This document shows, piece by piece, positions 287-58,075 of a stretch of 58,197 nt of DNA (the stretch's first letter is position 1; each line of letters begins with the position of its first letter). The notes beneath the pieces are model-generated. The model saw nothing but the letters and a program-made list of their open reading frames with translations, was not told the origin of the DNA and did not search any database. The stretch covers positions 1 through 58,197 of the forward strand of contig JBAYIQ010000005.1 in NCBI GenBank assembly GCA_041665545.1, written 5' to 3'. This DNA comes from Patescibacteria group bacterium. GTDB taxonomy: Bacteria; Patescibacteriota; Patescibacteriia; UBA1558; GWA2-36-10. The position numbers and the translations under genes were made by a program.

Positions 287-538
287 CTACTCGGTCTTCT
301 GAGAAGCCAGAAAGACCGAGCAGTGTTTGTGATGCTCTCCCATGCAGCCATTCTTGATGCGGTGCCCGCAAACGCAGGTACTGCAACAAGGCAAACAGTG
401 CTTGGCCATGGACTGGCCGTCACTGCCTATGGTGTGGCACAGACAAAAGCATTCGTGTGGATCGACATAGCAACTGTCGCTGGAGCCCATCCTCAACTTG
501 TCGGCGATCAAGTCGCCAATTGGCTTAAGGTTGCGCAT
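287..538 (-). CDS. Small Cys/His-rich protein (83 aa); possible metal-binding protein or RiPP-like precursor
   Basis: AGGAGG lies 6 nt upstream of the ATG (minus strand gaggaggtcagtaATG). There are 10 Cys and several His in 83 aa, and no N-terminal hydrophobic segment. The locus is visibly GC-rich relative to its flanks and has a terminator downstream. Confidence 0.5.
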   Translation of the reverse strand: MRNLKPIGDLIADKLRMGSSDSCYVDPHECFCLCHTIGSDGQSMAKHCLPCCSTCVCGHRIKNGCMGEHHKHCSVFLASQKTE

Positions 539-4753: not shown

Positions 4754-6193
4754 ATGGCTACAGTAACATTTGAGGATTTAAGGGAAATACTAGCTGACAA
4801 CTATCCGGGTGAAGACATTGGTGTCATCATCAAGGCTTTTCATTTTGCTTCTGAAGCGCACAAAGGCCAAAAAAGAAACACTGGCGAGGACTATATTTAT
4901 CACGCGCTAGCCACGGCTTACAACCTAGCCAAGATGCGTATGGATATACCCTCTATCGCCGCCGGGCTCTTACATGATGTGCCAGAAGATACTGATTTTA
5001 CTTTTGAAGAAATAAAAAATAATTTTGGCTCAGAAATATATTATTTAGTAAAAGGCGTCACCAAGCTAGGAACTTTGAAATACAGAGGCCTGGAGCGCTA
5101 TGCTGAAAATTTACGCAAAATGTTTTTGGCCATGTCCAAAGATTTGCGCGTCATCATCATCAAGCTAGCCGACAGATTGCACAACATGGAAACCCTAGAA
5201 GGTGTGCGACCAGAAAAACGTTTGCGCATTGCCCAAGAAACCATGGAAATTTTTGCGCCTATTGCCAACCGCTTGGGAATGTTTCGCATCAAAATTGAAC
5301 TAGAAGATCTGGCCTTCCCCTATGTCTATCCCGAAGAATACAAATGGGTGTCTGAACTAGTGCAAGACCGCCTGAAGACCGAAAGCAAATATATTGAAAA
5401 AATAAAAAAAACTACTCAAAAAGATTTGGCTAGACATAATATACCCTACATAATCATCAAAGGGCGAGTCAAAAGCTTGTACGGCATTTACCAAAAAATG
5501 ATCCGCAAGAATAAAGATATCAATAAAGTTTATGACTTGATTGCCTTGAGAATTACAGTCAATGATATTCCTGATTGCTACTTGGTGCTTGGTATCATCC
5601 ACAAACGCTGGACGCCCTTGAAAGGCCGAGTCAAAGATTATATTGCTCAACCAAAACCCAATGGCTACCAGTCATTGCACACTTCAGTCTTTACCGAATT
5701 TGGCAAAGTAGCCGAATTCCAAATTCGCACGCGTGCTATGGATGACGAAGCCGAATATGGTGTGGCCGCTCACAGCCGTTATAAGGAAATTGGCATTTTG
5801 GGCAAAAGAAAAAAGCCACCCAAATGGCTACAAGATTTGATGGAGATTCAAAAAACTATTACTGACAATACTGAATTTATCAAACATATAAAAAATGATC
5901 TGTTTGCCAATCAAATTTTTGTCTTTACTCCCAAAGGCGATGTCATTGAGTTGCCAGAAAATTCTACTCCTTTGGATTTTGCTTATCATATCCACACTGA
6001 CATCGGCACCCAATGCATTGGCGCCAAAATCAACGAGCAGATTGCCTCTCTGGACACACCCTTGAAGTCTGGTGATGTGATTGAAATTTTGATCAACAAA
6101 AGCCGGAAGTATCCCAATCCTGATTGGCTGGATATTGTAGTCACTAATTTAGCAAAAAACAAAATCCGCAGTCAGTTGAAGAATAAGATGTAA
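4754..6193 (+). CDS. rel: Rel/SpoT-family (p)ppGpp synthetase/hydrolase, short form (HD + synthetase + TGS; no C-terminal ACT region)
   Basis: HD motif HKGQKR...HD, the synthetase region and a TGS-like segment (FVFTPKGDVIELP...). The protein is 479 aa whereas canonical Rel is about 700 aa. Confidence 0.8.
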   Translation: MATVTFEDLREILADNYPGEDIGVIIKAFHFASEAHKGQKRNTGEDYIYHALATAYNLAKMRMDIPSIAAGLLHDVPEDTDFTFEEIKNNFGSEIYYLVKGVTKLGTLKYRGLERYAENLRKMFLAMSKDLRVIIIKLADRLHNMETLEGVRPEKRLRIAQETMEIFAPIANRLGMFRIKIELEDLAFPYVYPEEYKWVSELVQDRLKTESKYIEKIKKTTQKDLARHNIPYIIIKGRVKSLYGIYQKMIRKNKDINKVYDLIALRITVNDIPDCYLVLGIIHKRWTPLKGRVKDYIAQPKPNGYQSLHTSVFTEFGKVAEFQIRTRAMDDEAEYGVAAHSRYKEIGILGKRKKPPKWLQDLMEIQKTITDNTEFIKHIKNDLFANQIFVFTPKGDVIELPENSTPLDFAYHIHTDIGTQCIGAKINEQIASLDTPLKSGDVIEILINKSRKYPNPDWLDIVVTNLAKNKIRSQLKNKM

Positions 6194-6249
6194 AAAAAGA
6201 GACCCTATTTTAACCCGGGTCTCATAGAGAGGGTTGGCGGTTGACGCCA

Positions 6250-6609
6250 TCAAAGGAGAGCTCGCCCAGTAGTACGCATCGGTATCTTCCCGATCATTTG
6301 TGTCAGGAAGAAGAAGATCGTGAAGGAGATAATCAGTGGTACGCACATTTGAAAAGTGGATGTTATCGCCATCATATAGATGAGCAAAAAACAAGCGAGC
6401 GTAATGACGATCAGAGAGGTTAGTGCCGCGAAACAGAACCTCCACGACAACGTCGACAGAGCTATCCCCCAAAGCGTCCCGGTTGCTGTGCCAAAGAGGG
6501 CGAAGGTTGTGTAATTGCATATCACGTTGTCGTTGAACACGTCGATGAAAATGCCGACGATGGTCAGCGTCGCCAACAGACTCAGGATGATAAGCGCGAG
6601 CGTCTTCAT
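6250..6609 (-). CDS. Small secreted/membrane protein (119 aa) in GC-rich islet B
   Basis: AGGAG RBS 7 nt before MKTLALIILSLLATLTIVGIF, which looks like a signal peptide or TM helix. Local GC is higher than the flanks. The alternative overlapping frame 6149..6640 was rejected. Confidence 0.45.
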   Translation of the reverse strand: MKTLALIILSLLATLTIVGIFIDVFNDNVICNYTTFALFGTATGTLWGIALSTLSWRFCFAALTSLIVITLACFLLIYMMAITSTFQMCVPLIISFTIFFFLTQMIGKIPMRTTGRALL

Positions 6610-6740
6610 GGTAGTTCTCCTCATTTGAGGAACAAACCATAGGCTGAACTGCCTAATTTTTGGTTTTCAAAGTATTATATCATATATAGTACATTTTGTC
6701 AAGCCAAACCTAAAAATAGCCATTTTTGGCTATTCGCACA

Positions 6741-6828
6741 GTCATTCTGGAGCGAAGCGATAGAATCCATAAGTTTAACTTATGCTTGTAGATTCTATCG
6801 GCTCCCTTCGGGAGCCTCCAGAATGACG
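6741..6828. terminator. Nested multi-stem inverted-repeat element downstream of parB
   Basis: Three nested inverted repeats: gtcattctggag/ctccagaatgac (12 bp), gatagaatc/gattctatc (9 bp) and cataagt/acttatg (7 bp), plus a ggctccc-ttc-gggagcc hairpin. Confidence 0.4.
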
Positions 6829-6844
6829 ATAAAATGCTAAAATT

Positions 6845-7723
6845 TTACTCCTGCAATTTATTTAGTAGATTTTTTAATTCTTCGTGAGAATAAAAATCAA
6901 TCACAATTTGACCGCGCTCGCCTCTTTTTTTGATAGAAACTTTGGCGCCAAGATTCTTGGCTAGTTTATCTTCATAAGCCACGAGAATAGGATCTTGTTT
7001 TTTTTCATTTTTATCTTTGAGCACCGTGCGGTGTGCTAACTCGTCTAGCTGTTTGACCGTCAAATCCGAGTGCAATATTTTTTTGAAAATTTTAATTTGT
7101 TCGGTCTTACCGGGGTAGCTCAAAATTATTTTGGCATGAGAAAAAGTTATTTTGTTTTCCGCTAACGCTTCTTTGATAACAATAGGTAATTGCAGTACTC
7201 GCAACATATTGGCAATGGTCGAGGGACTTTTGCTGACTTGCTTGGCAATGTCTTCTTGTGACAAACCAAACTCCTCCATCAGCCGTTTGTAACTGCCAGC
7301 TTCTTCCAGACAGTTGAGGTCATGACGCTGAATATTTTCGATGATTGATAATTCCAGCTTGTCGCGATCTGATACTTCTTTGATAATGACCGGCACCTCA
7401 GTCATGTTCAAAAGTTGCGCGGCCTTCAAGCGCCGCTCACCAGCAATCAACTGCCAAGTATCTCCCACTCTGGTTACCACCAATGGCTGGATGATGCCGT
7501 GCTTTTTGATTGACTCAGCCAGTTCATTGAGCTTGTCATGATCAAAGTTGGTTCTGGGTTGCCACGGATTAGCGCTGACCTTGTCTATTGGCACAGTGAT
7601 TACTTGCTGACCGCTGGGTGTTTCATCATCACTAAAAGTATGCGCTGAAAAATAATCACGCGCGTTGTTTGATTTTCCTTTGTTGGGTATCAATGCCCCT
7701 AAACCTTTACCTAAAGCTGACAT
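6845..7723 (-). CDS. parB: Chromosome partitioning protein ParB (Spo0J)
   Basis: ParB box LIAGERRLKAA. HTH region GLSQEDIAKQVSKSPSTIANMLRVL. Confidence 0.9.
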   Translation of the reverse strand: MSALGKGLGALIPNKGKSNNARDYFSAHTFSDDETPSGQQVITVPIDKVSANPWQPRTNFDHDKLNELAESIKKHGIIQPLVVTRVGDTWQLIAGERRLKAAQLLNMTEVPVIIKEVSDRDKLELSIIENIQRHDLNCLEEAGSYKRLMEEFGLSQEDIAKQVSKSPSTIANMLRVLQLPIVIKEALAENKITFSHAKIILSYPGKTEQIKIFKKILHSDLTVKQLDELAHRTVLKDKNEKKQDPILVAYEDKLAKNLGAKVSIKKRGERGQIVIDFYSHEELKNLLNKLQE

Positions 7724-14117: not shown

Positions 14118-14703
14118 ACATTTACATCGTGTATGTGGTATACTTATTGATGTATGCCAGATACAAGAAAATATGTCGATCGTGCTGAGTATTTAAAACA
14201 AGCAGTTGCTAAACGTCGTAAAGATGTGAAAATAATGCTTGTAAAATATAAGGGCGGTAAGTGTAAGACTTGTGGCTATAAAAAATCCGTAGAAGCTCTT
14301 GAGTTCCATCATATAAATGAAAGAAAAAAGAAGTTTGGAATTTCTGGGCAAGGATTAACTAGATCTTGGAAAAGTGTAAAGCAGGAAGCTGATAAATGCA
14401 TCTTGCTTTGCGCAAATTGCCACAGGGAATTGCACGCAAAATAGTGCAGCTTCCTCAAGTAATTGAGGTTGACAAACGGGGTGAACTGTCCCGCAAAACG
14501 GGAGCCCGCCAAAGGCGGTGCCGGGAAGCCTAAGTCTAAAAGATATGGTAATCCGCAGCCAAGCCCTGAACCAGATGGTTCAGGGAAGGTTCAGAGACTA
14601 TCCGAAAGGAGTAGGCAGTATTTACTAGCCGAAGCGCCCCGCATCCTAAAAAATTATAGGATGATGATATAGTCCATCCCTTTAGGAAACTTAAGGATCG
14701 ATG
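14118..14703 (+). mobile_element. Group I intron (IC3-like) in the tRNA anticodon loop, carrying an HNH ORF
   Basis: By eye, matches conserved group I segments of the Anabaena tRNA-Leu and Azoarcus tRNA-Ile introns as recalled (atatggtaatccgcagccaagccct, agagacta, gacaaacggggtgaa). The 5' exon ends in U and the intron ends in G. Confidence 0.65.
14154..14444 (+). CDS. HNH homing-endonuclease-like protein (96 aa), intron-encoded
   Basis: CKTCGY...EFHHINERKK...CANCHRELH: HNH motif with zinc-binding Cys pairs. Confidence 0.75.
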   Translation: MPDTRKYVDRAEYLKQAVAKRRKDVKIMLVKYKGGKCKTCGYKKSVEALEFHHINERKKKFGISGQGLTRSWKSVKQEADKCILLCANCHRELHAK

Positions 14704-20031: not shown

Positions 20032-21818
20032 TAGCGCTGTAGTTTAGTTATTTCCTTATTTAATAAATTAATTTTATGGGTAATTTGGTCTTGAGTTATT
20101 GTGTCATTTTTTAGTTCGGCCTGACGCAATTGCTCAATCAAAAGCTGACGGCGCTCTTGGAATCTGTTGCTTTTCAATCTTTCCAGAGAAACATTGAAAT
20201 TGCTGTCTAGCTCCTGACCCGATAAATCAGCCATGTTTTGCTCAGCTGACATTAGTAGACGAATATACTGCTGTTTGGCCTCGACTTCCAGTTCGGGCCA
20301 ATCAATAAAATTATCTAAATTATGTTGCTTAGTATAATAGATTATTACCTTTCTGTAAAGATCTAGCAAGTCCGCTTCCATCATTTCTGGCTCCAGCTCA
20401 TTGACCAGGCGCTCCAGATAATTGTTTCGAAAAAATACAATTCCTAATAATTCTTCACTCAAAAAACTGACACTTGGTTTTTTGATGGCTATGACTTTCT
20501 TTTCGGGGCGAACATTTTCCAAGAAACTGCTGACTTGCTTGAGATCACTTTGCAAAATATCTAAAGGCAAATGCAACTTGTCAGCCAATAATTGCAAATA
20601 ATGAGATTGTTCAACCGCGCTTTTTAAATATTTTATAATCGGTAATAATTTTTGCACGGCTATTTTTTTGTGATCAGCCCGATTCAAGTCCACACCAGAT
20701 AAAATTCGCTGAAAATAATAATCCATCACTTGTATAGAATCACGCACCAATTTCAGCCATAAATTTTTATCGCTCTTTACTATGTCAGCTGGATCTTGAT
20801 TTTGTGGCAAGACCAAAATTTTCATATTCATTTCTTGAGCCCAGGCCAAAGTAATACTGCGCAAAGCGGCATTGGAGCCAGCTGTGTCACCATCAAAAGC
20901 CAAAATAACATTGTTGGTATAGCGCTTGATCAACTTCAAGTGATCAATGGTTAAAGCTGTGCCAGAAACTGCCACGGTATTAGTAGTGCCAGCTTGCTGA
21001 CTCAAAATCGCGTCAAGATTGCCTTCCACAATAATCAAATAATTTTTTTGCTTGATGGTGGCTTTGGCCAAGTGCCAACCATACAGTATTTTGCTTTTGT
21101 CATAAATATTGGTTTGCGGACTATTGATATACTTGCCACCAAAATCTTCGTCATGATAAACAATACCCTGCAAAGTGCGCGAAGTAAAAGCCACCACTCG
21201 CCCAGCTGTATCAAATATTGGAAACATCAGTCGCTTGCGAAAGCGATCCACGTAGCCACTGCCATCTTTTTTCTTTACTGAAATGCCAGCTTGAAAAATA
21301 TCGGTATCCGAAAATTTCTTGGCTTTCAAATACTGCAGAGCTTCATCCCAAGACTCGGTACTTAAGCCCAGACCCCATTTTTTTATACTGTCCGTAGTCA
21401 AACCCCGAGACAAAAGATAGTCCAAAACTTTGGCGCTGGTTTCATTTTTATCAAAAAGATTGCTCTGATATTTTTCCGCAATCAAATGATTTATTTCAAA
21501 CAAAAGATTAAAATTTTCCTTGGGTAATGATTGATAGCCAGCCAAAGAAACATTGGCTTTCTCGGCCAACAGCTTGATGGCTTCCGAAAAACTCAAACCC
21601 TCATATTCTTGAATAAAAGTAAAAATATCTCCGCCCTTGCCACAGCCAAAACAATGCCAAATTTGCTTTTCCCGAGAAACCATAAAACTGGCGGTCTTTT
21701 CATTATGAAAGGGACAACGCGCTTTGAGGTTGGAGCCAGTCGAATTCAAGGTGATATATGTGGAGATAATGTCGGCTACATCCAACTTGGCTTTTATTTC
21801 TTCAACCGGGTTCTGCAT
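20031..21818 (-). CDS. dnaG: DNA primase DnaG
   Basis: Zinc-binding [11 protein letters not shown]...[10 protein letters not shown]. Toprim region EGNLDAIL...FDGDTAG. Confidence 0.9.
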
Positions 21819-21928
21819 CCCGTTAGAAATTTAAATAATTAAACATATAACTAAAAAAATAAAATTTATCAATAAACCCATTATTTTTTCCACTAAACCT
21901 AGTTTAATGAATTTCTAACGGGATGCAT
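21816..21928. repeat. E2: ~113-bp element with terminal inverted repeats (catcccgttagaaattt ... aatttctaacgggatgcat); left arm overlaps the dnaG ATG, right arm abuts the GC-rich island
   Basis: Shares the 23-nt extension gttagaaatttaaataattaaac with E3. Confidence 0.65.
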
Positions 21929-21962: not shown

Positions 21963-21995
21963 AAAAGAAAGGCGCTCGAGAGGGGTTTCTCGAGC
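21963..21995 (-). terminator. Terminator hairpin (11-bp stem ggcgctcgaga/tctcgagcgcc) with T-run on the minus strand
   Basis: Lies directly downstream of island ORF 22028..22444. Confidence 0.55.
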
Positions 21996-22027
21996 GCCGT
22001 GGATTGTTGTCGGCTACTGGCCCGCGC

Positions 22028-22444
22028 CTAGGCGTGGACCTGGTAGACCGAATTGCCCCGAGCCGACTTCCAGCTGTCCGCCGATCCGTCGCGGACCAGC
22101 GCTTCGAGGTTGGACCTCACCAACTGGAACAGAAAGAAGTTCCGCTTCTCCCACCGATAGAGGCGCCGCATGACCATGCCAGCGGTCATGGGATGCCTCG
22201 CCCTCTGCATGAGCACGAGCACGCGCTCGCTCATGGGCTGATCGACCATGATCGGCGTGAACTTGACCTCGATGGCCACACCGTCCAGTTCTCCGACGGC
22301 GAGGATCGACGCCGGACGACGATCGCGCGCCCTGCGGATGAACCTCTCGGCCACGGGGAAGACCTTCCCAGCGAAGATCGCGGGCACAGTGATCGAAAGC
22401 ATGATGATGGCGATGATGAGCACGAAAATCTCGATCGGATTCAT
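22028..22444 (-). CDS. Membrane-anchored hypothetical protein (138 aa) in the GC-rich island
   Basis: GGAGG lies 5 nt before ATG. N-terminal TM helix IEIFVLIIAIIMLSITVPAIFAG followed by an Arg-rich soluble domain. The overlapping plus-strand ORF 21923..22534 was rejected. Confidence 0.55.
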   Translation of the reverse strand: MNPIEIFVLIIAIIMLSITVPAIFAGKVFPVAERFIRRARDRRPASILAVGELDGVAIEVKFTPIMVDQPMSERVLVLMQRARHPMTAGMVMRRLYRWEKRNFFLFQLVRSNLEALVRDGSADSWKSARGNSVYQVHA

Positions 22445-22596: not shown

Positions 22597-22627
22597 AACC
22601 TTCGAGGTTGCCATAACCTCGAAGGTT
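22597..22627. promoter_or_regulatory. Perfect 13-bp inverted repeat AACCTTCGAGGTT-N5-AACCTCGAAGGTT between divergent island genes
   Basis: Seen directly. It lies ~55 nt upstream of a TTGACA-N16-TAGTAT promoter-like sequence at 22684..22711. Confidence 0.45.
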
Positions 22628-22869
22628 GGCCGTGTCTACTAGTATTGCACTGATTTGTTGAACCCACGCTACAAACACTTGACAAAATATTATTATTATG
22701 ATAGTATAAAATGTTTTGACCAAATAGCAAAAAATTGAGCTTTTGGTTAAACCAAAAGTTCTTTGAAATGTCATACATCACTCGTAAAAACAACTAATAA
22801 GATCGAGTTTTCTGTCCACAAATCCTATGGCCACAGTGTCAGTGCAACCACGTAACGAAAGGAGTTTCG

Positions 22870-23460
22870 ATGGAACACCAGCAGACCTTCTGGCACATGC
22901 TGGGGAACGACGTGGGGATGATGACGTTCGCCGTTCTGGGCTTCATTGGCGGAGTGTTCACTTTGATCACTCTGGCCTTCGGCCACGGCGACCACAACAT
23001 CGACCACGACTTCAGCGCGGGCGACCACGACTTCAGCGCGGGCGACCACGACAACAACGCCGGCCCGAACGTGTTCTCGTTCCGCAACATCATGCTCTTC
23101 GTCACCGGCTTCGGTGGAATCGGCATGCTGGCCAAGTACCATGGCGCAAGCTTCATTGTGAGCAGCCTCTGGGGCGCTTTCTCTGGCTTCATCATGGCAT
23201 TCGTCGGCTACCTGATCTACCGCGCCCTGTACAAGAGCCAGGCGACCTCGCACATCGACAACTGTTCGCTGTGCGGTTCGATCGCTCTGGTCGAACAGGC
23301 CATCGTCGCTAACGGCATGGGTATCATCGTGGCCGGAGGCGAGATTGGCCACCTCGTTCGCCTCCAAGCCAGAACGAAGGAAGGAACCCCGGTCGCAAAC
23401 GGCCGACAGGTCCGCATCCTGAATATCAACGGGACCGAAGCTCTGGTCGAGGCCCTCTAA
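22870..23460 (+). CDS. NfeD-like membrane protein (YqiJ-type: TM region + C-terminal OB-fold)
   Basis: AAGGAG RBS. Hydrophobic N-terminal half with HD repeats. C-terminal domain VANGMGIIVAGGEIGHLVRLQ...GRQVRILNINGTEALV. Lies immediately upstream of an SPFH protein. Confidence 0.7.
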   Translation: MEHQQTFWHMLGNDVGMMTFAVLGFIGGVFTLITLAFGHGDHNIDHDFSAGDHDFSAGDHDNNAGPNVFSFRNIMLFVTGFGGIGMLAKYHGASFIVSSLWGAFSGFIMAFVGYLIYRALYKSQATSHIDNCSLCGSIALVEQAIVANGMGIIVAGGEIGHLVRLQARTKEGTPVANGRQVRILNINGTEALVEAL

Positions 23461-23503
23461 TCCCTGCTCCAACACACCACCGTCTTCCCAAAGGAGTATC
23501 AAG

Positions 23504-25228
23504 ATGGAACAGTCCGCACACTTCATGCAGTACCTGATCCCCGCGATCATCCTGTTCGTGCTGATCGCCTTTCTGGGTGTGATCCGCCTGGCGGCCAAGA
23601 ACTACATCAAGGTGGCCCCGAACGAGGTGGCCATCATCAGCGGCAGCCGTCACAAGACGACGGTCACGCTGCCCGGCAAGGAGAACGAGCCCCCCACTAC
23701 GGTGGTGCGCGGATACAAGCTGGTCACCGGTGGCGCCTTCTTCAAGGTGCCGATCCGCGATCGGGTCGAGATCATGAAGCTCAATCTGATCCAGATCATT
23801 GTCCAGGTCACCAACGTGCCCGCCCTCAACGGCGTGCGCGTGACGGTCAAGGGCATCGCCAACATCAAGATCCTCTCCGACCAGGCCTCCCTGGCTCTGG
23901 CCGTGGAGCGCTTCCTGGGGAACAACCTCAGCGAAGTGGAACGTGTGGCCAATCAGAACCTGGAGTCCAACCTCCGCGCCGTCGTCGGCACGATGACGGT
24001 CGAGGATCTGATCCGGGACCGGGCACAGCTCCAGGCCCAGATCCTCCGGGAAGCGGTCAGCGACATGTCCAAGATGGGTCTCGGTGTGGACCTGATGAAC
24101 GTCCAGGAGATCACGGACGAGAACGGGTACATCGAGGCCCTGGGCATGGCGCGAACCGCCGAGGTCAAGCGCGACGCAACCATCGGCAAAGCCGAGGCCC
24201 AGCGTGACGCCGACATCCGTTCCGCGGAAGCCGGACGGCTGGGCGAGACGGCCAAGGCCGTGGCTGCACAAGCCATCTCGGATGCGCAGAAGGCCAAGGA
24301 TATCCGCGTTGCCGAGAACGAGAGTCTGGTCAAGGCACAGCAGGCCAGGATCCCGATCATTGCGGAGCAGGCTCGAGCCGAGGAACAGAAGGCGCTCAAC
24401 ATCAAGACCGTCGAGGCCGATCGTGCCAAGACCGAAGCCGAGATCGCCCTGCAGCAAGCGGCTCAGCGCCGGCACGAGGCCGAGCTGAACGCAACTACGA
24501 TCATTCGGGCCACGAAGGACAAGGAGGCCCTAGTCATCGCTGCCGAGGCCAAGGCCCTGGCGGCGGAACGGGAAGGCGAAGCCTACCGCATCCAGCACGA
24601 GATGGAAGGCAAAGGTGACCAGGCCAAGCTGACTGCTGTGGCTCAGGGACGCAAGGAAGCGGCGGCGGCTACCCAGACCGAACTGGAAGCCGCGGCTGCC
24701 GGTAAGAAGGCCGGACTGCTGGCTGACGCCGAGGGTGTCAAGCAGAACGGTCTGGCCAGGGCTGCCGGAGTCGAAGCCGTTGGTGTGGCTGAGGCCACGG
24801 CTTCGGCCAAGAAGGCTGAGGCTTACACCCTGCTTGATGCCAAGGGCATCATGCTCATGCTGCTCCAGCTGTCGCCGGACGTCATCAAGGCGCTCGGCGT
24901 GGCTGTCGGCGACGCCATCAAGCCGTCGGCAGATGCCATCGGACAGGGCCTGGGTAACATCAAGGAACTGCGCATGGTGGATCTGGGTGGCGGTTCGGCT
25001 GGCGGGGCTGGCGGGGGCAATGTCCTCAATCAGTTCGTCAACCAGCCCATCCAGACCTTGTATGGCCTGATCGAACGGATGAAGGCCACGGGCATGGCAC
25101 CGGCGTTCATGAAGCTGGCCAAGGAGAAGCTCGGGCTGGATCTCACGGACGTCTTCGCTGGTGCTCCTACCCAGACGACGTCGGACGACACGCACAAGAA
25201 GGGTGGTGATGACACGGCTACGGCTTAG
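23504..25228 (+). CDS. Flotillin-like SPFH/band-7 protein (YqiK-like) with Ala/Glu-rich coiled-coil
   Basis: N-terminal TM helix, SPFH core (KVPIRDRVEIMKLNLIQI...LMNVQEITDENGYIEALG) and an extended EA-rich repeat region. Confidence 0.85.
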   Translation: MEQSAHFMQYLIPAIILFVLIAFLGVIRLAAKNYIKVAPNEVAIISGSRHKTTVTLPGKENEPPTTVVRGYKLVTGGAFFKVPIRDRVEIMKLNLIQIIVQVTNVPALNGVRVTVKGIANIKILSDQASLALAVERFLGNNLSEVERVANQNLESNLRAVVGTMTVEDLIRDRAQLQAQILREAVSDMSKMGLGVDLMNVQEITDENGYIEALGMARTAEVKRDATIGKAEAQRDADIRSAEAGRLGETAKAVAAQAISDAQKAKDIRVAENESLVKAQQARIPIIAEQARAEEQKALNIKTVEADRAKTEAEIALQQAAQRRHEAELNATTIIRATKDKEALVIAAEAKALAAEREGEAYRIQHEMEGKGDQAKLTAVAQGRKEAAAATQTELEAAAAGKKAGLLADAEGVKQNGLARAAGVEAVGVAEATASAKKAEAYTLLDAKGIMLMLLQLSPDVIKALGVAVGDAIKPSADAIGQGLGNIKELRMVDLGGGSAGGAGGGNVLNQFVNQPIQTLYGLIERMKATGMAPAFMKLAKEKLGLDLTDVFAGAPTQTTSDDTHKKGGDDTATA

Positions 25229-25320
25229 TAGAACTGACTGTCTCTGACGGTCTGAACTCTGAGCCAAAGCTTTCATAGAGGGGAGGCGGTGCTACACAGC
25301 ACCGCCTCCCACTCCAAAAC

Positions 25321-30313: not shown

Positions 30314-33300
30314 CTATTTTAGTTCTTCAGCATATTCAGCAAACACCCAGCCAACTTTATTTTCAGTTAAAGCTATTTGATACCAGCCAAATTTTTCTAA
30401 ACCCTGAGCCGCCACTTGACTAAGCAAGTCGTATTTTTCTCCGGCACTTACTTTGGCCACAACGGCTGTTTCTTTGGAAGCTTCCTGCCTGACATTGAGC
30501 CAACCAGTTGGTGTATCTTTAATAATAACTTGTTTCTTCATTAAAATATCTTCCGTAGCGGGTACTGTGCTACTAGAAGTGGAACTGGCACTTTCTGAAC
30601 CAAAACTAAAAGCCATATTATTATCAGCTAAAACAGGAATATTATCAAGCTTATTGACGTCAGTTTCAGAGGCGACGGTCACATTGTTGGCTGACCTAAG
30701 TTCGTCAGTCTTAATATATTTTGATAAATTTTGTCTAATATTAGCCAAAATACCATATTTATCAACTAACAAATACAAAACTATAAAAATCAAAACAAAA
30801 GTAATAAGCCAGACTTTATTTTGTCTGATATTTTTGAACAAGCGAGTAAAAAATTGCTTAATATAGATTAAAAAACTTGTCGATACTTTGGCCTTTGCTT
30901 CGACGCTAGCTATATTGGCTGGACTATTTTTGCTAACTGCTGCTTTCTTCTTTTTTCTGCGCCCACCAGAGGAATTCATTTTTTCCATATCAAGCGGCTT
31001 GCCAGTCAAAATATGCGACTGCAAGGCCATCTGACCATTGGCTATGGCTACTTGATGCTTCCACATGGAGAACAAGATGGTCACTAACAAACCAAAGCCG
31101 GTGACAAAAGCAATAATGATCCCCCACACCGAAATGGTCTGTATACCACCCAAGGCTCCCAAAAATCCGCGAGAGGCATCAGCTTGGCTCAATAGTGACT
31201 TCAATTCATCCAATTCTGTCTGCACACTAATAAAACTTTCTTTATTTTCTCGATAAGTCATAATTTTATCTTGCGGGGAGGCAGTATTTTCTTTTTGAGT
31301 ACGCAGAATTTTTTCTACTTTGCTATCAATATCATTTTTGAGTAATAAAGCTTGAGAAGAAAGTTGATTTTTTTCTAATTTCTTATAAAAATCATTGGCC
31401 TGCGTCTTGGCTATAGTCAAATCATTTTCAGCAATCTGCCAAATATCTCGCATTTTAATAAATTTTTTGACCGAAGCACCCGGAGCCAATTCAATCTCGC
31501 CAGCCGCATACAAAGTATCTAGCTGAACATCGTACTGAATATTGAAACCGCCATCATCCATAATGTGCTCTACTTTAGCTTCCTTTGGAAGATAAATCTT
31601 GAATGGCACTTTTTGAGCAGTCTTGGCTGGATTGGAAAGCATGATGTTCAAATCCACTGAACCAGAGGTGTACCAAGTGCTGACTATCGGAGCCGTGGCC
31701 TGCTGAACCACTTGACGCTGAACAGTGGTGACGGCTTTGTAGTCGGCTAATTTATTACGCACATATTTTATATCCGTCATATTCTCCTGCGAGATGGACA
31801 GTATTGAACTCAAAGTATCGCTATCCAGACGGCCCAGTTTGGTATTGATGTTCTGAATGGAGTTGGAGATGGTACCCATGGCTGTGAACATCTCCTCGGG
31901 CTTCACATTGTAAACATTGGTATTGTTGGTGGTACTACTGCCGGAGCCAACTTCAATATTATCAATACTTGTTTCTAGAGTAGCGATGCTAGCTTCAATA
32001 TTATCTAGTTGAGTTTTGATTAAAGCAATATCTGCCTTGATCAAAGTCACGTCGTCCTTGATGCCAGCCACATCGGACTGGATGGTGCTGATCTTAGTCA
32101 CTGGTACGGCTAATGTTTTTAAAATAGTAAAAGCGTCACTGCTAGCTGGCGCAAAGGGAAGATCTGGTTCTACTGTAATGGCTTTGGTTGTACCATTATA
32201 ATCATCTATTCTTCTGGCTACACCACTGTTTTGGCCAGAAGTAAAAGTCAGCAGTGCGTGAGCATATAAATCATTGACAGCGCTGGTAAGATTTGTGCCA
32301 AATAAAGAAATTGTCGGGCTAACTTCGGCTGTAGAAACAGCGGAGCGAATGGCAATCAAATCATTGGACAACAAATCAACTGAGTTACTCACCGCGTCTA
32401 TACTATTACCCAGTGTCGTTTCAGTGGACTGCAAATCAGATAATGTGGCTAGCGACCCACTGTCTAAATCCGCTCCTGATAAATAACGACCACTGTAGGC
32501 CCAAATAGAAGCCGCGTCCAAAGTAGCAGTATTTGAAGTCTGGGCCAAAATAGTAAAGGTGTCAGCATTGGCAGGAGCCAGAGCCAAAGCAGGATCGACC
32601 GTGATCGCCTTGGTGGTGCCATTGTAGCCCATAATCCTTCTCGCCTGACCAATATTTAAACCCGAGGTGAACAATAAGATATTATTTTTATAAAAATCAT
32701 TAGTGGCATTAGTCAAGGCAGTAGCAAATACTGTGGTTGATGGCGCCAAATCATTCACTGAAGTTTCCGAAACAATCAAGGCATTGATAATTTTATCTAG
32801 CTTAGTGCTGTTGACGCTAATAGCACTAGCCAAAACTGTTTCCGTATCTTGAATATCTGACAAAGTAGCTAAAGAACCAGAGTCTAAAGTGGCACCTGAT
32901 AAATACCTGTCGCCATAGGTCCAGATAGCGGCCGCATCAACTGCCGAGTTGGCTGTCTGCGCTAAAATAGTAAAGGTATCGGCATTAACCGGAGCTAAAG
33001 ATAAAGCTGGCGAAACAGTAACCTGTTTGCTAGCCCCGACATAATCGGTAATACGACGCGCTTGACCAGCGTTGACGCCAGAAGTAAAAACCAAGACACC
33101 GTTGTTATAAAAATCATTACTGTTGCTGGTCAAAGTTGTAATAAATTGATTATCTGAAGCGCCGGCATCATTGACCACTTTTTGTTCCACTATTAAATTA
33201 TTAATCAGCGTATTTAATTGTCCGCTCAAAGTACTTTCGGTAGATTGTATATTTGACAAAGTGGCTAAAGATCCGGAGTCTAAAGCGGCGCCTGACAAAT

Positions 33301-36300
33301 AGCGACCATCGTAGGCCCAAATAGCGGCTGCATCAAGTGAGGCATTGGCGGTTGAGGCCAAAATAGTAAAAGTATCACTGCTAGATGGAGCAACCGACAG
33401 AGCCGGAGTAATAGTCAATTTTTTGGTAGCGCCAACATAATTGCTAATGCGTCTAACCTGACCAGCATTGGATCCAGAGGTAAATACCAAAACACCGTCA
33501 TTATAAAAATCATCATTGGCATTGGTCAGGGTGGTAATAAATTCTGTGGTTGAGGGACTTGGGTCATCAACGGCTTTTTGGGCGACCAATAAATTATTTA
33601 TCAAATTGCTTAAACTATTGGCAACCGCTGTCACCTCAGCTGATGAAGCGCGAGAAGAAATAGTAGTATCAATATTGGTTTTTAATAAAGAGCCAATGCT
33701 ATTGATAGTCGTGATTGAGGTCAAAAGTGTATCCCAAACTCGTTGTGCCGTCAGATCGCCAGATGTTAGGGTGCGAGTTTCATAAGTCCAAATTTCAAGA
33801 GCTAAAGCGGCTAAACCATCATTCTCAATACTAGTAATTGTCCTGGTGCCCTCACTCCAAACATCTGATGCCGTCAAATTACTAGTGCCACGAGAAGAAA
33901 TAGTAGCATTCAAATTATCAACTATCAGTTTGCCAATAGAACCACCCGTAGAAAGCAAAGCTGATGCTATATTCCAGACTTGAGCTGGATCAGATAAGGT
34001 GACTCCACCACTCAAACTGCGGCCACCAGCTGACCAGACATCAGCCGCTGAAATATTATTTAAGGCCTGTATGTCAGCCAAAGTAGCCAAGGAGCCACTA
34101 TTCAAAGTAGCGTCAGTCAAACGACGAACATTGTACTCCCATATTTCTTGGGCAGTCGCCCCGCCACCGCCAGTAGCGCTAGAATAATAACTTAAAATAA
34201 TAAATTCATCATTGAAAGCTGGCGCATAAGGCATGGCCGCATCCACCGTAATTGCTTTGGTGGCGCCATTGTAGCTAGAAATTCTACGGGCAATACCAGC
34301 ATTCTGGCCACTCATCATAACCACCATTTGATTTTGATAAAAATTAGAAGTGGCTTGTGTCATGTCTGTCACAAAGACAGTGGCTGAAGCGGCCACATCA
34401 TTGACCAAGCCCCGCTTGATGGCCAAGCGATCATTTAAAAGTTGCCCAAAAGATCCATCAATATCAGCAAATGACCCCACTTGTGCTCCCCAAATACTAG
34501 TAGCCGTCAAGCCAGTTGACAACCACGGCACCACTGGTTGACCAGAAGAATGAAAATCCAAAGTACCAGTATCTACTGTACCCGATAAAACAGCCATATC
34601 ATCTATGTACACCGATGGCTGTCTAAAAATAATATAATCACCCATCGTGGCATTGGTCAGAGTGGTACTTAAAAGATGTGGCACTACTCCACTACCCTTC
34701 AAATACAATAACTGGGCAGTATTTTTTACAATATCAAATATCTTACCATTAGCGTCTTTAAATTTATAGCCGACCCATTGATTGGTGGTCCAACTTTTAT
34801 CAACATCCTCAACAATGATTGGCAAATAATTACCCAAGGAATCATCGATAATTTCACTGGTGCCAGAATCAGCGGCCACAAAAGCTGACTGCACGGAAAA
34901 TTTTATATCGGCAATAGCTGACTCTGTAGGCGTACCAGACACCACAAACTGTTGCCAATCATTAGCCGTGTCTTGTGCTGTCCAAGTAAGGTTGGCACCA
35001 GTCATACCCAGACCAGATAAGGTAACTGTCGGTAAATTAGTAGACCCATAATAACTATTGATATTCATATAGCCCGTAATGGCTAGTGGCTGGTTAGCCA
35101 CACCAATGACTTTGGCTGTATATTCAAGTGGCGCATCAGGATTCAGCGAATCCAGACGCCACGCATAACCACTAGCTGTGTGAGCAGTGGAATCATTGAG
35201 ACCTAACCCGGAAGTTCGCATATTACCAAAAGTGGTAAAATTAACTATGTCTTTAGTCGAGCTAGAATAATTGCCGCGAATATCAGCTCCGGGGATAGTC
35301 AGACCATAAAAATGTTCTGGTATCCTAGACATATTATTATAATCGGCCATGCCAAACAAAACCGGACTTAATAATTGAGTATTAGAGCCGGTAAATTGCA
35401 TCAATGATTCTGCTTCAAAAGTAGTGGTATTAGCTGGTATACTAATATCTGCCTCATTCCAAGAACCACGACCAAAAATACTACCACTATCCATAATACC
35501 CACATTGGCCGTGGTTTGGGCCACGCTGATTCCTGCGCCATATCCAGCTTGATTTAAGGTGACAGTATCCGAGACCGAGCCATCAAAAACATTATCAGAC
35601 ATCGTGAGGAAAGAATTACCATTGAGCCGTATACCAAAATTATTTACTGAAAAAATATTGTTAGCGATAGTCATTTTGGCTACGCCACTATTTAAATTAA
35701 CTGCTCCGCTAGTAATACCCGTCACACCATTATTATAAAACTGGCTATTAGCAATAGTGTACAAACGTCCAGACACAAAAGAAGCCGCACCATTAGCCGA
35801 GGTCAAAGCCGCATTAGTGTTGCGACATCCCATAAATATACTGCCATCAATGCCAACGTTTTGTGAAGCTGTAGCATTATAACCAGTGCCTAAAGTAGTG
35901 GCGCCAAAGTTGGTGGTCACAAAATATGCTCCCACAGTATTAGTGCCTTGAGTTTTGGCTGATACCGTATAAGCACGATCATAATAATTATAAAATACTG
36001 ACTTACTGACTGTCTGTGTTGGTTTGACCAATGTGGAAGTATAAGGATTGTTCATTATAGAAAAATTACTATACTGATTCTCAGTAGAAAGATGACTAAC
36101 GTTCAGATTCGCTAAACCTGACAAACCCACAGCTACTGTACCAAAAGCATTGCCCATGTGTATGGGCGTGGCCACTGTGGCACCGGTAGCATTTATTTCC
36201 TCATCCGACCACATGTGTATACTACGCTTGAGATTCAACACTGGCGAATTGTAAGGAGCTGAAGTAGAGTCCCGCTTGGCCTTGTGATGGAAAGTAAAAT

Positions 36301-39300
36301 TATTTGACCAGCCAGCCAAAGTGGCCGCTGTACCATTTTCTAGAAAACCAGAACCAAACTTTATCCTAGCTGATGGTGTGTATTTTTCTCCAGTATTATC
36401 CACCCATATTCTTGTGCGATCCGGATAGGTCACAACTCTTATTCTATCATTGCCCGTATCAGCACCGTTGGTAAAAATCATGGCTGGATTGCCATAGGCA
36501 TAGTCTGCCCAAACAAAACCCTCTTGAGGATTCATGGCCGCGTCAAAACTAGCGCGAAAAATATTAATACCAGTACTAGTCGCGTAGCCAGTACCGACAG
36601 TCTCACCTCCCACCCAAGCGCTGGTTGGTGGTGTAAAGTTACCCCAGTCAGTGGCCGAAGTACTGATAGAATTATCAAAAATCGCAAACTCATCCAAAGC
36701 GCCATCAAAAGGCGCAGCAAAATCATAACGATTACCGAGCTTAATCAAACCAGCGTTTATACCTCTAGTACCGACAGCCGACCCCTGACCAATGGTAAAG
36801 GCCGTGCCATTCAACCAAGCTCTTTTGGCGTTAGCTGTTTCATCCCAAGCCAAACGAAAATGATACCAAGTACCAGCGGTAGCTGAAAATGCTTGCCTTA
36901 ACAAGGTACCTTGAGCAGCGGCGGCATACAGGCCAACTTCCAAGAAACCTTCTGGGGTAGAACTGGAAGTATTTATGTGCCTGATAAATAAACGATCAGT
37001 ATCTATCTGAGCAACATTGGCTTGATCAAGCAAATACATACCATAAGGATGCGTGCTAGTAGCTGGATAACCGTTATAAGAGGGCTTGAACCAAAAATCA
37101 ATTGTGCCATTTTGTCTGGTGGTAATTGTGCCACTTTGGGCCTCAATATTATACCTAGTTGGCACCGCGCTACCAGTCAAAGTAAATGCTGGAGCTATCA
37201 TCACCGCGCTACCTATGCCATTCTGACCAGTCCAAGAACCAGTATTGCGTCGCATGTTATCCTGCAAGAGCAATTGACGCGCGCCAAATTTTGGTCCAGT
37301 CGGTGTGCCAGAATTTATACGCAAAGAGATTTCACTATTTGGCGATGTATAGGTACTACCTGCCGTAGCCGTACCAGCAGCACCAGTAGCACTACCAGTG
37401 ACATCATATTTACCACTAGTAGGGTTCCATTCGAAATCCCAAACTTCATATTTGGTATTGACACCAGTAGTAATTGGCACGCTACTATCAAGACCAAAAC
37501 TATTTCTAATAGCCGTAGAACCAATATATATCTTATCCCCTATTTCCGGATTTACTACGCCATTCCAACCACCTTTGTGTTTGATAATAAAATTAAGATA
37601 ACTGCTAGTAAAAGGAACACTCGGATAAGCCGTGCCTATCAGACCAGCACTTTCTCCGGTCACTCGCCAAGAACCAGTATTATTAAAATTATCAGAAAAA
37701 CCAAGGTCCGTGCTTAAATTATCAAATTTTACTTTATTACCCACACCAGCCGAACCAGCACCAGCATAAACACCAAAGCGACCACCTGCGTAGGTGGCAT
37801 TCGTCTGAGAAGTATCCCACGACCCTTCGGTCGGATCAGTATCACAATCTGTGGTAGCCCAAAACTTAGCATTGAGAGTGGTGCCTACGGCCTGCGCTTT
37901 GAGACAATACCAAGCAGAAGTGGCAAAGGCCTTGGAAAAAGCTGAGCCAATTACTGTCGGCACACCTGCCAAGGTAGTATATAAACCAATGGTATTGACT
38001 GCGTTAGTTTTGTTAATCAAAGCGGCATAGCCATTACCATCAATACTTTGCCTAAAAGTAAGACCTAATTTCCTATTACTACCGTCTTCCACATTATCCA
38101 TATACACCAATGCTTTGATGGTATAATCGCCATCACTCAAACTTCCATAGCTATTATGCAAAGCTATGTTGGCTTGATTTGTTTCATTGATATTTAATGT
38201 CCCGTCACTGATGTGCCAAATATAAGGAGCCGACGGCAAAACATTTACTGTACTGGCCATTCTTTGCACCTCTACCCAACCTGGGGAATTACCATATTCC
38301 AACATATACTGCTCATTGGGATTATAGGTGGCTCCTGGTGTCACAGCGCCAATCTTGGCTTCTTGCACGCCAGAAGACACGGTGATGGCTCCAGAGGAAA
38401 GTCTCTCAATACCACTCATGCCCATAGGAGTGGTCTGGTTGGTCGGAGAGGTGGTCCAAGAACTGACTGAATCAACTTTTAATCTAACCCAATAAGCATT
38501 AACTCCATTAACAGTTGTCTTGGCCGGAGTGCCAGTCAAATCATTTGGTGTCCAGGATAAAATACGACGATTGTTAGTAGCGCCATTTTCCGTCAAAAAA
38601 TTACTAGGATTAAAAGACTTCCATTGCCCGCCATTCAATCGGCTGATTGTTGCTGTTTGATCCGTGGTATAGCCCAAGGGCACCGGCTCGGTAAAGGTAA
38701 TAACGCCAGCGGCGATTACGCTAATGCGTCGATAAATAGGATCAGAATTATTATCGTCAATCATCACTACTTGATCAACACCAAAGTTAGCTTGATTGCC
38801 AGAGGTCACTGACACAGTATAAGAATTTATAGTTGTATTGGCTGACAATGGCACGGAATGTCCGGTACGCATTTGGTATTTATAAGCATCGCGGGGTGTA
38901 AAAGATGTCCAGCCAGCGCCATTATAAAATTGCCATGACAAGGAAGCGCTAGCATCCATGGCTACACCCATATTCAACTCCAAAGAATAAATCATGTTAC
39001 TACCTTGATCGCCAAAATATATAGCATCATCAGCCTCTACTGTTGGATTGGCCCCATCCACAAACATGGTCCAAGCTGATGTAGTAGCATAGTTTCCAGA
39101 AAAACCACTTGTACCATTATTATTATAAATATCAGTCAGGGGTATGGTGCCAATTTCTGCCACTTCCATATTTGGTGTGGGCAAAGAATTACGTCCACCA
39201 GCGGTAGCTAGTCCTGTCCAAACTGGAAACTGATTACCATCATCATTGGCTCCCATCCGTAAAGATGAAAAATTGTTATCAACTGCTTGGTTGGTAGCGC

Positions 39301-45605: not shown

Positions 45606-46079
45606 TTAATCATCTTCTTCCTCATCATCATTGCCAACCACATTAGTATTTTGATTTGTGTTAGCTGGTGGTATGGCCACCGCATCTGTAGAAACAGTTG
45701 ATCCGATTATACCGATCTTGTAACTAGCCAAAATATTGCTAGCATTAGCCGAATGACCCTGAGTAGCAAAGGCAGCGGCAATATCGCCTCCGCAATATTT
45801 AATAATGTTTGATTGCCCACCGGGATGTGATTTTATATATGATGTCACATTATAGACATTATTGCCAGCTGTCACCCAGCAGTCAGAAGCCATATTGTGT
45901 TGGGTTACTATAGCAGTAGTTAGAGTATATGTCACTGGCGCGATATTGGCAGGATTGTTGGTTAATAAATTTCCTAGGTTGGTTAAACTTCCATTATTTT
46001 GTCTTACTAAACTATTAACAAAAAAAATGCTGACTGCTCCCCAAAAGATAAATACCGCTATAATTATTATTTTATTCAT
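45606..46079 (-). CDS. Secreted cytochrome b5-like heme-binding domain protein with acidic C-terminal tail
   Basis: DCWVTAGNNVYNVTSYIKSHPGG...GGDIAAAF (HPGG motif). Signal peptide. C-terminus DDEEEDD. Confidence 0.6.
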   Translation of the reverse strand: MNKIIIIAVFIFWGAVSIFFVNSLVRQNNGSLTNLGNLLTNNPANIAPVTYTLTTAIVTQHNMASDCWVTAGNNVYNVTSYIKSHPGGQSNIIKYCGGDIAAAFATQGHSANASNILASYKIGIIGSTVSTDAVAIPPANTNQNTNVVGNDDEEEDD

Positions 46080-57548: not shown

Positions 57549-57575
57549 TTAGCACTCTCTATTTTAGAGTGCTAA
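57549..57575. promoter_or_regulatory. CIRCE element (HrcA operator) upstream of groES
   Basis: Perfect TTAGCACTC-N9-GAGTGCTAA. Confidence 0.9.
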
Positions 57576-57741
57576 TGATTTTTTGTCAAGATCACATGTG
57601 CCAAATAATATAGAAGGTCGCGCCAGCGACCTGAGCGTAGGCGAGCTAAGCTCGCCGAAGTCGAAGGTTGACAAAAACCAAGTAAAATGATTTCATTTCA
57701 ACTATAGTGAACAAAACCACATACCATTTGGGAGGTGAAAC

Positions 57742-57987
57742 ATGCGCGCCATCTACCACAAGAATCGTCTGATCAACGAACTCCATCGTCTCTTCTACGC
57801 CACCTGCGTCTGGGTCATGGACCTGCCCGACAATGTCCCCAAATTCCTGAGATACTCAAAGATGGAGCTCAAGGAGAGAGCTTCGAACACGTTTCACATT
57901 CTGCTCTTTTTCGGCGCCTATGCTCTGCTCGGCTTGATCGACCTCTTCCGTGGCCTGCGATACCGCCTTCGAGACAAGGTGCTGTGA
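57742..57987 (+). CDS. Small hypothetical protein (81 aa) in GC-rich islet D
   Basis: GGGAGG lies 6 nt before ATG. GC-rich. A C-terminal hydrophobic helix. Followed by a GC-rich terminator. Confidence 0.45.
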   Translation: MRAIYHKNRLINELHRLFYATCVWVMDLPDNVPKFLRYSKMELKERASNTFHILLFFGAYALLGLIDLFRGLRYRLRDKVL

Positions 57988-58039
57988 TGCTCTTTCGACT
58001 TCGTGCCCTAGCTACCGATTACACACGGCGGCTGGGGCT

Positions 58040-58075
58040 TTTTTTTCGACCCGCCGGGTGACCCGCCGGGTCGTC
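58040..58075 (+). terminator. GC-rich hairpin/direct-repeat terminator (cgacccgccgggt x2) after a T-run
   Basis: ggggcttttttttcgacccgccgggtgacccgccgggtcg. Shares the core cgacccgc with the hairpin at 641..683. Confidence 0.4.

Follow-up and report, generated by a model that had tools for sequence, protein, structure and literature searches.

The contig JBAYIQ010000005.1 of a Patescibacteria group bacterium (assembly GCA_041665545.1), whose 58,197 nucleotides were analysed over their full length and are referred to here as the window, carries short GC-rich islets between its low-GC genes. The present work concerns two of them: islet B, located at the convergent junction of relA and parB, and islet D, located next to groES close to the end of the contig. 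A previous reading made from the sequence alone had described each of the two as a small gene led by a Shine-Dalgarno (SD) sequence and embedded between housekeeping genes, and had listed them, together with an islet A and a flotillin island, as acquisitions from a high-GC partner or host. The features found in the two islets, including their open reading frames (ORFs), are given below.

6194 to 6826, minus strand: the whole of islet B, an insertion of about 630 bp from the relA stop codon (6193) to about 18 nt past the parB stop codon (6845).
6741 to 6827, minus strand: Y-shaped palindromic element at the parB-side edge of the insertion, its outer stem GTCATTCTGG/CCAGAATGAC enclosing two inner hairpins.
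6714 to 6735, minus strand: hairpin with a T-run, a terminator-like site between the Y-shaped element and the B promoter.
6702 to 6674, minus strand: B promoter of the sigma-70 type, TTGACA-17-TATAAT with a TG extension before the -10 box, matching the consensus at 12 of 12 positions.
6617 to 6621, minus strand: SD sequence of B, AGGAG, 7 nt 5' of the ATG.
6250 to 6609, minus strand: ORF B, 119 amino acids plus the stop codon.
6192 to 6223, minus strand: B terminator, a GAGACCC...GGGTCTC hairpin followed by T7, adjoining the relA stop codon.
57615 to 57656, plus strand: a pair of GC-rich hairpins, AGGTCGC/GCGACCT and GGCGAGC/GCTCGCC, that precede the D promoter, from the hairpin scan.
57668 to 57696, plus strand: candidate D promoter, TTGACA-17-TGaTTTCAT, with an extended -10 box.
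57730 to 57738, plus strand: SD sequence of D, GGGAGGTGA, its GGAGG core 6 nt 5' of the ATG.
57742 to 57987, plus strand: ORF D, 81 amino acids.
58005 to 58046, plus strand: intrinsic terminator of D, a 12-pair stem followed by T8.
58047 to 58073, plus strand: second hairpin after the D terminator, containing CGACCCGC and a tandem 12-nt duplication (GACCCGCCGGGT twice).
58086 to 58197, minus strand: 3' end of an IS481-like transposase gene that runs off the contig end, with a terminal inverted repeat, AGCTTGGAATCA, at 58090-58101.

The parB-side end of islet B is strongly structured, the RNA fold of positions 6705-6845, which takes in both the Y-shaped element and the hairpin at 6714-6735, reaching -57 kcal/mol (z = -7.2), and this hairpin is likely to be a terminator or an insulator against read-through from parB. 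The promoter is followed by a leader of about 65 nt and by an ORF whose length of 119 codons and AGGAG motif at -7 agree with the sequence-only reading. The AlphaFold2 model of the product (mean predicted local distance difference test score, pLDDT, of 64) contains helices at residues 2-25, 31-50, 55-78 and 81-106, which coincide with the hydrophobic segments of the protein, and B is accordingly predicted to be a four-helix membrane protein. The B and D proteins are 100% identical to the NCBI entries 'MAG: hypothetical protein WCV69_03425 / WCV69_03665 [Patescibacteria group bacterium]'. Besides itself, B has no homologue among 5.8 billion clustered proteins, and an exhaustive HMMER search of 1.8 billion representatives returned B itself and two weak hits. 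Both weak hits are chance matches inflated by repeats; the one to P0005 (2496 amino acids), a eukaryote-like protein of which a soluble, repeated segment is aligned, was rejected as non-homologous. No match to B, D or the other small islet proteins was found in Pfam, NCBIfam, PHROGs or PADLOC; likewise, no relatives were found in viral contigs (for B, D and a 138-residue islet protein described below), in the plasmids of PLSDB (B only) or in the phages of INPHARED (D only). A permissive Rfam search of both islets gave nothing credible, the best result being a sub-threshold match of a CRISPR direct-repeat family (CRISPR-DR) to the duplicated hairpin of D.

The anatomy of islet D can be compared with two further alleles, found at related loci that we designate L001 and L095. 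The D promoter proposed here escaped a simple consensus scan, which did not flag 57668-57696, and its assignment as a putative promoter relies on the block being conserved in the three alleles. The SD block is identical in all three, and prediction suggests a weak pairing of this block with codons 4-8. Conservation is higher in the promoter block, leader, SD sequence and 3' untranslated region with its terminator than in the coding sequence itself. The 81-codon frame is intact and free of indels in the three diverged alleles, with 34 invariant residues. The terminator has a consensus fold of -23.5 kcal/mol in which two G-U pairs are replaced by Watson-Crick pairs in L095. The hairpins upstream of the promoter are largely kept in L001, where the first 5' arm reads aaaaTCGC in place of aggTCGC, and L001 has one copy of the 12-nt GACCCGCCGGGT unit against two in the window. 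In L095 a different hairpin replaces the pair at 57615-57656. The product of D, whose 81 codons and GGAGG core 6 nt before the ATG are again as the sequence-only reading had them, is modelled by AlphaFold2 (pLDDT 58) as a helical hairpin, in which residues 51-69 or thereabouts form a hydrophobic helix.

In composition, the islets stand well apart from their surroundings. The GC content of the window is 0.41, and the GC content at third codon positions (GC3) of 24 confident native genes is 0.376 +/- 0.042, whereas ORF B has values of 0.375, 0.425 and 0.675 at the first, second and third positions and ORF D has a GC3 of 0.744. In bulk the departure of B is smaller, 0.49 against 0.41 for the window, a GC content that still ranks within the top 0.6% when native in-frame windows are taken for comparison; at third positions, however, the level of the islets is reached by none of 1119 B-sized and none of 1206 D-sized native in-frame windows. 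Codon log-likelihoods prefer an island model over the native model for both B and D. The islet genes favour CTC and CTG for leucine, ATC for isoleucine and TTC for phenylalanine where native genes use TTA and TTG, ATT and TTT, and no TTA codon occurs in any of them. In every islet the ORFs, with a GC3 of 0.68-0.86, follow a promoter and leader that are AT-rich (GC 0.32-0.38), and the islets are thus mosaics of recipient-like regulatory DNA and GC-rich genes. B and D are genuine and compositionally foreign, as the sequence-only reading had proposed; its count of four foreign, SD-using insertions was right as to their nature and too low in number, since at least five GC-rich transcription units with a total of six genes are present in the window. 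Besides B and D these units are the following.

287 to 538, minus strand: islet A gene, 83 amino acids, cysteine-rich, SD sequence AGGAGGT, GC3 0.71.
22028 to 22444, minus strand: gene of 138 amino acids with an N-terminal transmembrane helix, SD sequence GGAGG, promoter TTGACA-17-TATGAT, terminator at 21971-21998, GC3 0.86.
22870 to 25228, plus strand: operon of an NfeD-like gene and a flotillin gene (SPFH/Band_7), both SD-led, GC3 0.81-0.83, terminator at 25281-25310.

The same division is found at the translation starts. A strong SD sequence precedes six of the six islet genes and one of 37 native genes (Fisher p = 1.1e-6), which bears out the earlier claim that native genes lack the motif and islet genes carry it. 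Regions upstream of native genes are AT-rich, several of them with a TATAAT-like box 5-12 nt before the ATG, which suggests that native mRNAs are leaderless or very short-leadered. Purine-rich SD-like motifs also precede the genes of flotillin islands in other lineages, some in a weakened form (AAAGGGG). Within native coding sequences GGAGG is depleted, with 11 occurrences against 26.6 expected (0.41 of expectation, z = -3.3), control pentamers lying at 0.6-1.6 of expectation. Taken together, the recurrence of SD sequences over alleles and lineages and the depletion of GGAGG suggest a ribosome that recognises the SD sequence. About half of the Parcubacteria have been reported to be without an anti-SD motif (PMC9297842).

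With regard to its history, B is a recent insertion at the convergent junction of relA and parB, present in this strain only among the relatives examined. It is missing from the junction in L008, L009, L012 and L033, whose RelA is 76-81% identical to that of the window and in which relA and parB abut directly or flank an unrelated low-GC gene. It is likewise missing in the closer relatives L102 and L096-L101 (RelA 92-94% and ParA 91-94% identical): in L102 the junction is empty, a spacer of about 65 bp with one bidirectional terminator, and in L096-L101 it holds a low-GC pilin-like gene of 329-334 amino acids. When the window is aligned to the empty site of L102 (RelA 92%, ParB 89% identical), homology stops at the 3' end of relA and at about 6827, which sets the bounds of the insertion at about 6194-6826. 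No mobility gene lies beside B, which is accompanied by a palindromic element only.

The history of D is a different one. Its only homologues are syntenic copies in close relatives, at 75% identity in L001 (GroEL 99.1% identical) and at 52% in L095 (GroEL 97.6%), and both occupy the same slot, between the promoter of groES with its CIRCE operator (controlling inverted repeat of chaperone expression) and wzy. The synonymous divergence (dS) of D, 0.30-0.69, equals that of the flanking genes, 0.26-0.77, which indicates that D was co-inherited with its flanks and is not a recent arrival; from these comparisons it appears to have been resident since before the three sampled strains split and to have been inherited vertically. 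Its non-synonymous divergence (dN) is 0.135-0.37 against 0.006-0.05 in the flanking genes, giving a dN/dS of 0.45-0.55 against 0.01-0.12, so that the D protein changes at non-synonymous sites 10-30 times faster than its neighbours. The three alleles have a GC3 of 0.71-0.77, and their allele-unique changes run from GC to AT more often than the reverse (46 against 27, p = 0.03), whereas those of neighbouring genes are balanced (162:159 and 96:75). This excess fits amelioration, and by a simple decay estimate from dS, a starting value of about 0.9 and neutral drift after the split of the strains could account for the GC3 of about 0.72.

The groES slot is in fact a cassette hot spot that swaps cargo between relatives. 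It holds D alone in L095, D and two further GC-rich genes in L001, a GC-rich NfeD-flotillin operon in the more distant L088 and L089 (GroEL 85% identical), and D followed by an IS481-like element in the window and in L106, a second assembly. The window includes the last 36 codons of its rve-type transposase (Pfam rve_2, 23.9 bits); the gene for the full transposase of 292 amino acids is seen in L106, where the element lies at 1-930, and has a GC3 of 0.30 and no SD sequence, its best NCBIfam match being IS481 (187 bits against a cut-off of 224), and the pair of 12-bp terminal inverted repeats AGCTTGGAATCA is visible there. Relatives have wzy where the window has this insertion sequence (IS), and from its absence in L001 and L095 it follows that the IS arrived after D. 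L102 has, at about 7130-7170, a 29-nt sequence that copies the left end of the IS, cgttatggttcaatAGCTTGGAATCAcct, directly upstream of the promoter of a different GC-rich, SD-led cassette, which hints at an association of the IS with cassette borders. A perfect CIRCE operator, TTAGCACTC-N9-GAGTGCTAA, is found at 57549-57575, overlapping the groES promoter (TTGACA-17-TAAAAT, 57589-57561), and is kept in all relatives, also where the neighbouring cassette differs.

Among the other GC-rich units, the NfeD-flotillin operon is the one with recognisable domains. Its flotillin matches Band_7 with E = 3e-22 and the FloT model with 194 bits, below the equivalog cut-off of 700, and the NfeD C-terminal domain match is weak (E = 0.009); the arrangement of a Band_7/SPFH protein preceded by an NfeD-like membrane protein is that of SPFH/flotillin-NfeD pairs. 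The operon is preceded by an AT-rich leader of about 170-190 nt (22679-22869), of which a hairpin and a 'gtcatacatca' block are shared with L088 9135-9370 (77% over 103 nt), although the two islands lie at different loci, and this leader may be a regulatory RNA. The islet A protein has about 13 cysteines in CxC and CC patterns after a charged N-terminal stretch, and might be a peptide that binds metal or one from which a modified peptide is made; upstream of its promoter lies a 21-bp hairpin at 640-684. Close to the 138-residue gene, a motif tttaattatttaaatttctaacgggATG precedes dnaG and another gene (21816-21845; upstream of 45606-46079). At 21900-21926 an inverted copy of this motif begins a short stretch that looks like a native gene start, MHKLILGEIRFLVKKK, and leads directly into the terminator of the 138-residue gene; a gene broken up by the island may have left it behind. 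Outside the window, the GC-rich, SD-led cassette of L102 that has the copy of the IS end by its promoter lies between relA and topA and encodes a signal-peptide protein. A GC-rich ORF of about 60 codons, conserved between uvrA and uvrC at L088 18117-18308, L001 17056-17235 and L095 13861-14088 (minus strand in each), also belongs to this style of cassette; an SD sequence leads it in L088 and L001, and none was seen in L095. A census of high-GC3 ORFs over 73 loci was contaminated by antisense and alternative-frame ORFs of native genes, and the clean cases alone were used.

Several of the palindromes at the islet borders recur elsewhere. The Y-shaped element of B belongs to a family of about 85 nt found on contigs of distantly related Patescibacteria (window 6741-6827, L020 86-169, L001 13947-14028, L034 934-1026 and L065 3698-3777), with an outer stem GTCAT(T/C)C...G(A/G)ATGAC and two inner hairpins inside it; an 11-mer of the element also opens the islet flank in L102, and the element has no Rfam match and no copy in IMG/VR. 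Two further hairpins are common to the flanks of non-orthologous cassettes, namely cctcccctgtcaaggggagg, at 175-194 of the window and at about 7095-7128 of L102, and aaccttcgaggtt..aacctcgaaggtt, at 22598-22630 of the window and 7897-7929 of L095, where it is the hairpin that takes the place of the D pair. The sequence-only reading had also seen a core common to the D terminator and the hairpin of islet A. The 8-mer in question, CGACCCGC, is indeed over-represented in the window (four copies against 0.44 expected); however, in islet D it sits past the true terminator, and no extended similarity joins A and D. As a repeat family it was rejected, with blastn returning no match between the A and D hairpins and one of the four copies (44212) lying in a native intergenic spacer.

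We hold, with moderate confidence, that this genome, low in GC and with core genes free of SD sequences, has acquired at least five self-contained accessory cassettes horizontally, B and D being two of them, and that these probably come from a pool exchanged by Patescibacteria. The plan of such a cassette comprises one or more GC-rich upstream hairpins that probably shield it from the transcription of its neighbours, a sigma-70 promoter and leader, both AT-rich, a strong SD sequence, a GC3-rich ORF and an intrinsic terminator, and the landing sites are intergenic gaps at gene ends. The proximate source may be a GC-rich, SD-using accessory gene pool shared by Patescibacteria, with entry by DNA uptake (DprA is encoded at 1324-2397) and subsequent illegitimate or IS-assisted recombination, and the products would be small membrane proteins, most likely at the cell envelope or the interface with host or phage. 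From the sequences we infer that the islets are expressed and translated in an SD-dependent manner, as well as the route of transfer and the function of the proteins. The flotillin, the sole islet gene with broad homology, is the most informative as to source: its closest relatives (61-72% identity) are all found in GC-rich islands of other low-GC Patescibacteria, and the best named match outside the group has 53% identity. Four low-GC Patescibacteria contigs carry the flotillin island, at differing loci and with a flotillin GC3 of 0.74-0.88 against a native GC3 of 0.20-0.47, and its AT-rich leader travels with it. Since AT-rich promoters and leaders are found in all islets and co-travel with the flotillin island, the transferred unit was apparently already adapted to Patescibacteria, and exchange of cassettes among Patescibacteria is probably what took place. 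In agreement with this, a published survey of aquifer Patescibacteria found islands and transferred genes to be common, and 83% of the transfers that it inferred were from Patescibacteria to Patescibacteria (PMC12455944).

Some observations weigh against this reading or limit it. No donor lineage was identified for the islets, and no integration machinery for B; with B lacking a homologue, the case for its foreign origin is made by composition and absence from relatives alone. The GC-to-AT excess in D is modest in size, and the high GC3 that persists in every sampled lineage could also be explained by selection. In the flotillin island third-position singletons number 140 from GC to AT against 13 in the reverse direction, in a test biased by skewed composition and long branches and for which we calculate a ratio of about 5:1 already at equilibrium. 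The pLDDT values of 58 for D and 64 for B are too low for assignments of function to be more than guesses, and no 16S rRNA gene is present in the window or in any locus fetched.

Of the alternatives, the one closest to the proposal of the sequence-only reading holds that a high-GC partner or host, such as an actinobacterium on which an epibiont lives, was the direct donor of each islet, and that the islets have yet to drift to the composition of the recipient. A GC3 of 0.68-0.86, codon usage typical of genomes of about 60-65% GC, strong SD motifs, which are usual in such donors, a DprA fitting DNA uptake and the net GC-to-AT drift of D are all consistent with this, but we consider it unlikely. 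No homologue of B or D was found in a high-GC context among the 5.8 billion or 1.8 billion proteins or the viral, plasmid and phage sets, which favours a Patescibacteria-associated pool and gives no support to a direct high-GC host; likewise, the nearest flotillins are in Patescibacteria islands, those outside reaching at most 53% identity, consensus promoters and leaders with a GC content of 0.32-0.38 are unexpected from a high-GC genome, and D was resident before the strains diverged. The idea of repeated acquisition is thus upheld as far as acquisition goes, by composition, by the absence of B from relatives and by the variable cargo of the groES slot, and finds no support as to the high-GC donor and, for D, as to recency. 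Taxonomic best hits (none for B, close relatives only for D, and GC-rich islands of other Patescibacteria for the flotillin) name no high-GC donor. A second alternative would make the islets long-standing genes of the lineage whose GC3 and SD sequences are kept by selection or GC-biased gene conversion, for instance as a class with separate regulation and SD-dependent translation. In its favour, the three D alleles still have a GC3 of 0.71-0.77 and the four flotillin islands one of 0.74-0.88 at a dS of as much as 0.3-1.1, the SD sequence and leader of D are better conserved than its coding sequence, the promoters are of native type, and the avoidance of GGAGG in native genes suggests an active anti-SD. 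We give it little credence, nevertheless, as the distribution is patchy and variable in site, with B absent from all relatives and the flotillin island at varying loci, as D shows a GC-to-AT excess next to neighbours at equilibrium, and as its GC3 would be compatible with neutral amelioration.

The two remaining alternatives would deny the islets a biological history as genes. Sharp compositional boundaries in a metagenome-assembled contig could come from GC-rich fragments stitched in during assembly or binning. This explanation is effectively refuted: over 6879 bp the B region shows 100% identity to an independent Logan assembly, built from another run, both D and its junctions are seen again in assemblies of JGI, ENA, Logan and GTDB from different samples, native sequence is found on both sides within a few hundred bases of each islet, and the combination of an AT-rich promoter with a GC-rich ORF is functionally coherent. 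The earlier judgement that chimerism was unlikely is hence confirmed. It could also be argued, from the many GC-rich hairpins at the islet edges and the lack of a homologue of B, that the ORFs are spurious and that the islets represent structured, GC-rich non-coding RNAs or else repeats, but this is very improbable given the strong three-base periodicity in both ORFs, with GC3 well above the GC content at second positions, the correct spacing of SD sequence and ATG, the intact frame of D with its 34 invariant residues, the four regular hydrophobic helices encoded by B and the lack of a match to any Rfam family.

When horizontally acquired cassettes of the kind favoured here are compared with known systems, the genomic islands of Patescibacteria (PMC12455944) resemble them in atypical composition, patchy occurrence, location between core genes and transfer mostly within Patescibacteria, but the cassettes described here are of 0.45-3.3 kb, with one or two genes and their own promoter, SD sequence and terminator, and display a contrast in translation start with core genes that is not described in that study. 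Phage morons share with them their own promoter and terminator, a differing GC content, intergenic placement and variable presence; as an identification, a phage moron was rejected, the neighbours being relA, parB, groES and wzy, with no prophage and no match in PHROGs, IMG/VR or INPHARED. Integron cassettes and CALIN arrays (clusters of attC sites lacking integron-integrases) are similar in their small, mostly homologue-less ORFs, imperfect palindromes and hot spots with exchangeable cargo, and differ in that the cassettes found here have their own promoters, hairpins located upstream and no co-oriented array. They were rejected as well, as the hairpins are without attC ends (RYYYAAC/GTTRRRY), no integrase lies by B, and the sole recombinase seen is the IS481-like transposase by D. 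A type I toxin-antitoxin system, with a toxin of about 60 amino acids or fewer and an antisense small RNA, does not agree with proteins of 81 and 119 amino acids and with the lack of an antisense promoter in either islet, the conserved leader of D and its possible SD-occluding stem being a loose resemblance. Bacteroidetes are poor in SD sequences and keep them on a few special genes, as in the autoregulation of rpsU, and they are similar in that core genes are SD-free and a small subset is strongly SD-led; here, in contrast, the subset consists of foreign-looking accessory genes with no ribosomal-protein gene among them. IS1397 and ISKpn1 insert at palindromic REP/BIME sequences (repetitive extragenic palindromes and bacterial interspersed mosaic elements), and comparably an IS of the rve type, with IS481 as best match, adjoins the GC-rich hairpin after D, while an IS-end remnant lies by the hairpins at the L102 islet, a likeness that rests on these two instances. 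The islets are moron-like in anatomy but chromosomal, and the known kind to which they belong is that of horizontally acquired accessory cassettes encoding fast-evolving small membrane proteins.

Elsewhere in the window, a giant ORF of 4143 amino acids lies at 30314-42745 on the minus strand, and a signal-peptide protein encoded at 53418-55310, also on the minus strand, is only 43.5% identical to the corresponding protein of a relative with 99% GroEL identity. The two products are further fast-evolving surface proteins. A group I intron is found at 14473-14696 on the plus strand, with a flank to about 14745 (Rfam RF00028, 81 bits), and is followed by ggtcgtgggttcaaatccctccctcggagcca, which resembles the 3' half of a tRNA, suggesting that the intron may split a tRNA gene not called by ARAGORN.

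Ultra-small epibiotic bacteria are thought to adapt largely through the gain of cell-surface genes. The cassettes described here indicate how this may proceed, with kilobase-scale, ready-to-express units landing in specific intergenic slots of an ultra-small genome, and with a slot adjacent to groES that swaps its cargo among relatives and whose resident protein evolves far faster at non-synonymous sites than its neighbours. The split between SD-led foreign genes and SD-free native genes provides a simple sequence marker of recent gene gain. It also raises the question of whether the ribosome of this lineage still uses its anti-SD, and for what, and the anti-SD is the one point that could lift the finding above the ordinary. 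As a tentative and rather doubtful possibility, the lineage may run two regimes of initiation, with core genes SD-free, from AT-rich or leaderless starts, and mobile GC-rich accessory genes dependent on pairing of SD and anti-SD. If this were true, the anti-SD would be kept or selectively exposed mainly for accessory genes, and the cell, or the cassettes, would have a separate channel of translational control; should the 16S rRNA prove to be without CCUCC, the conserved SD sequences would need a new explanation.

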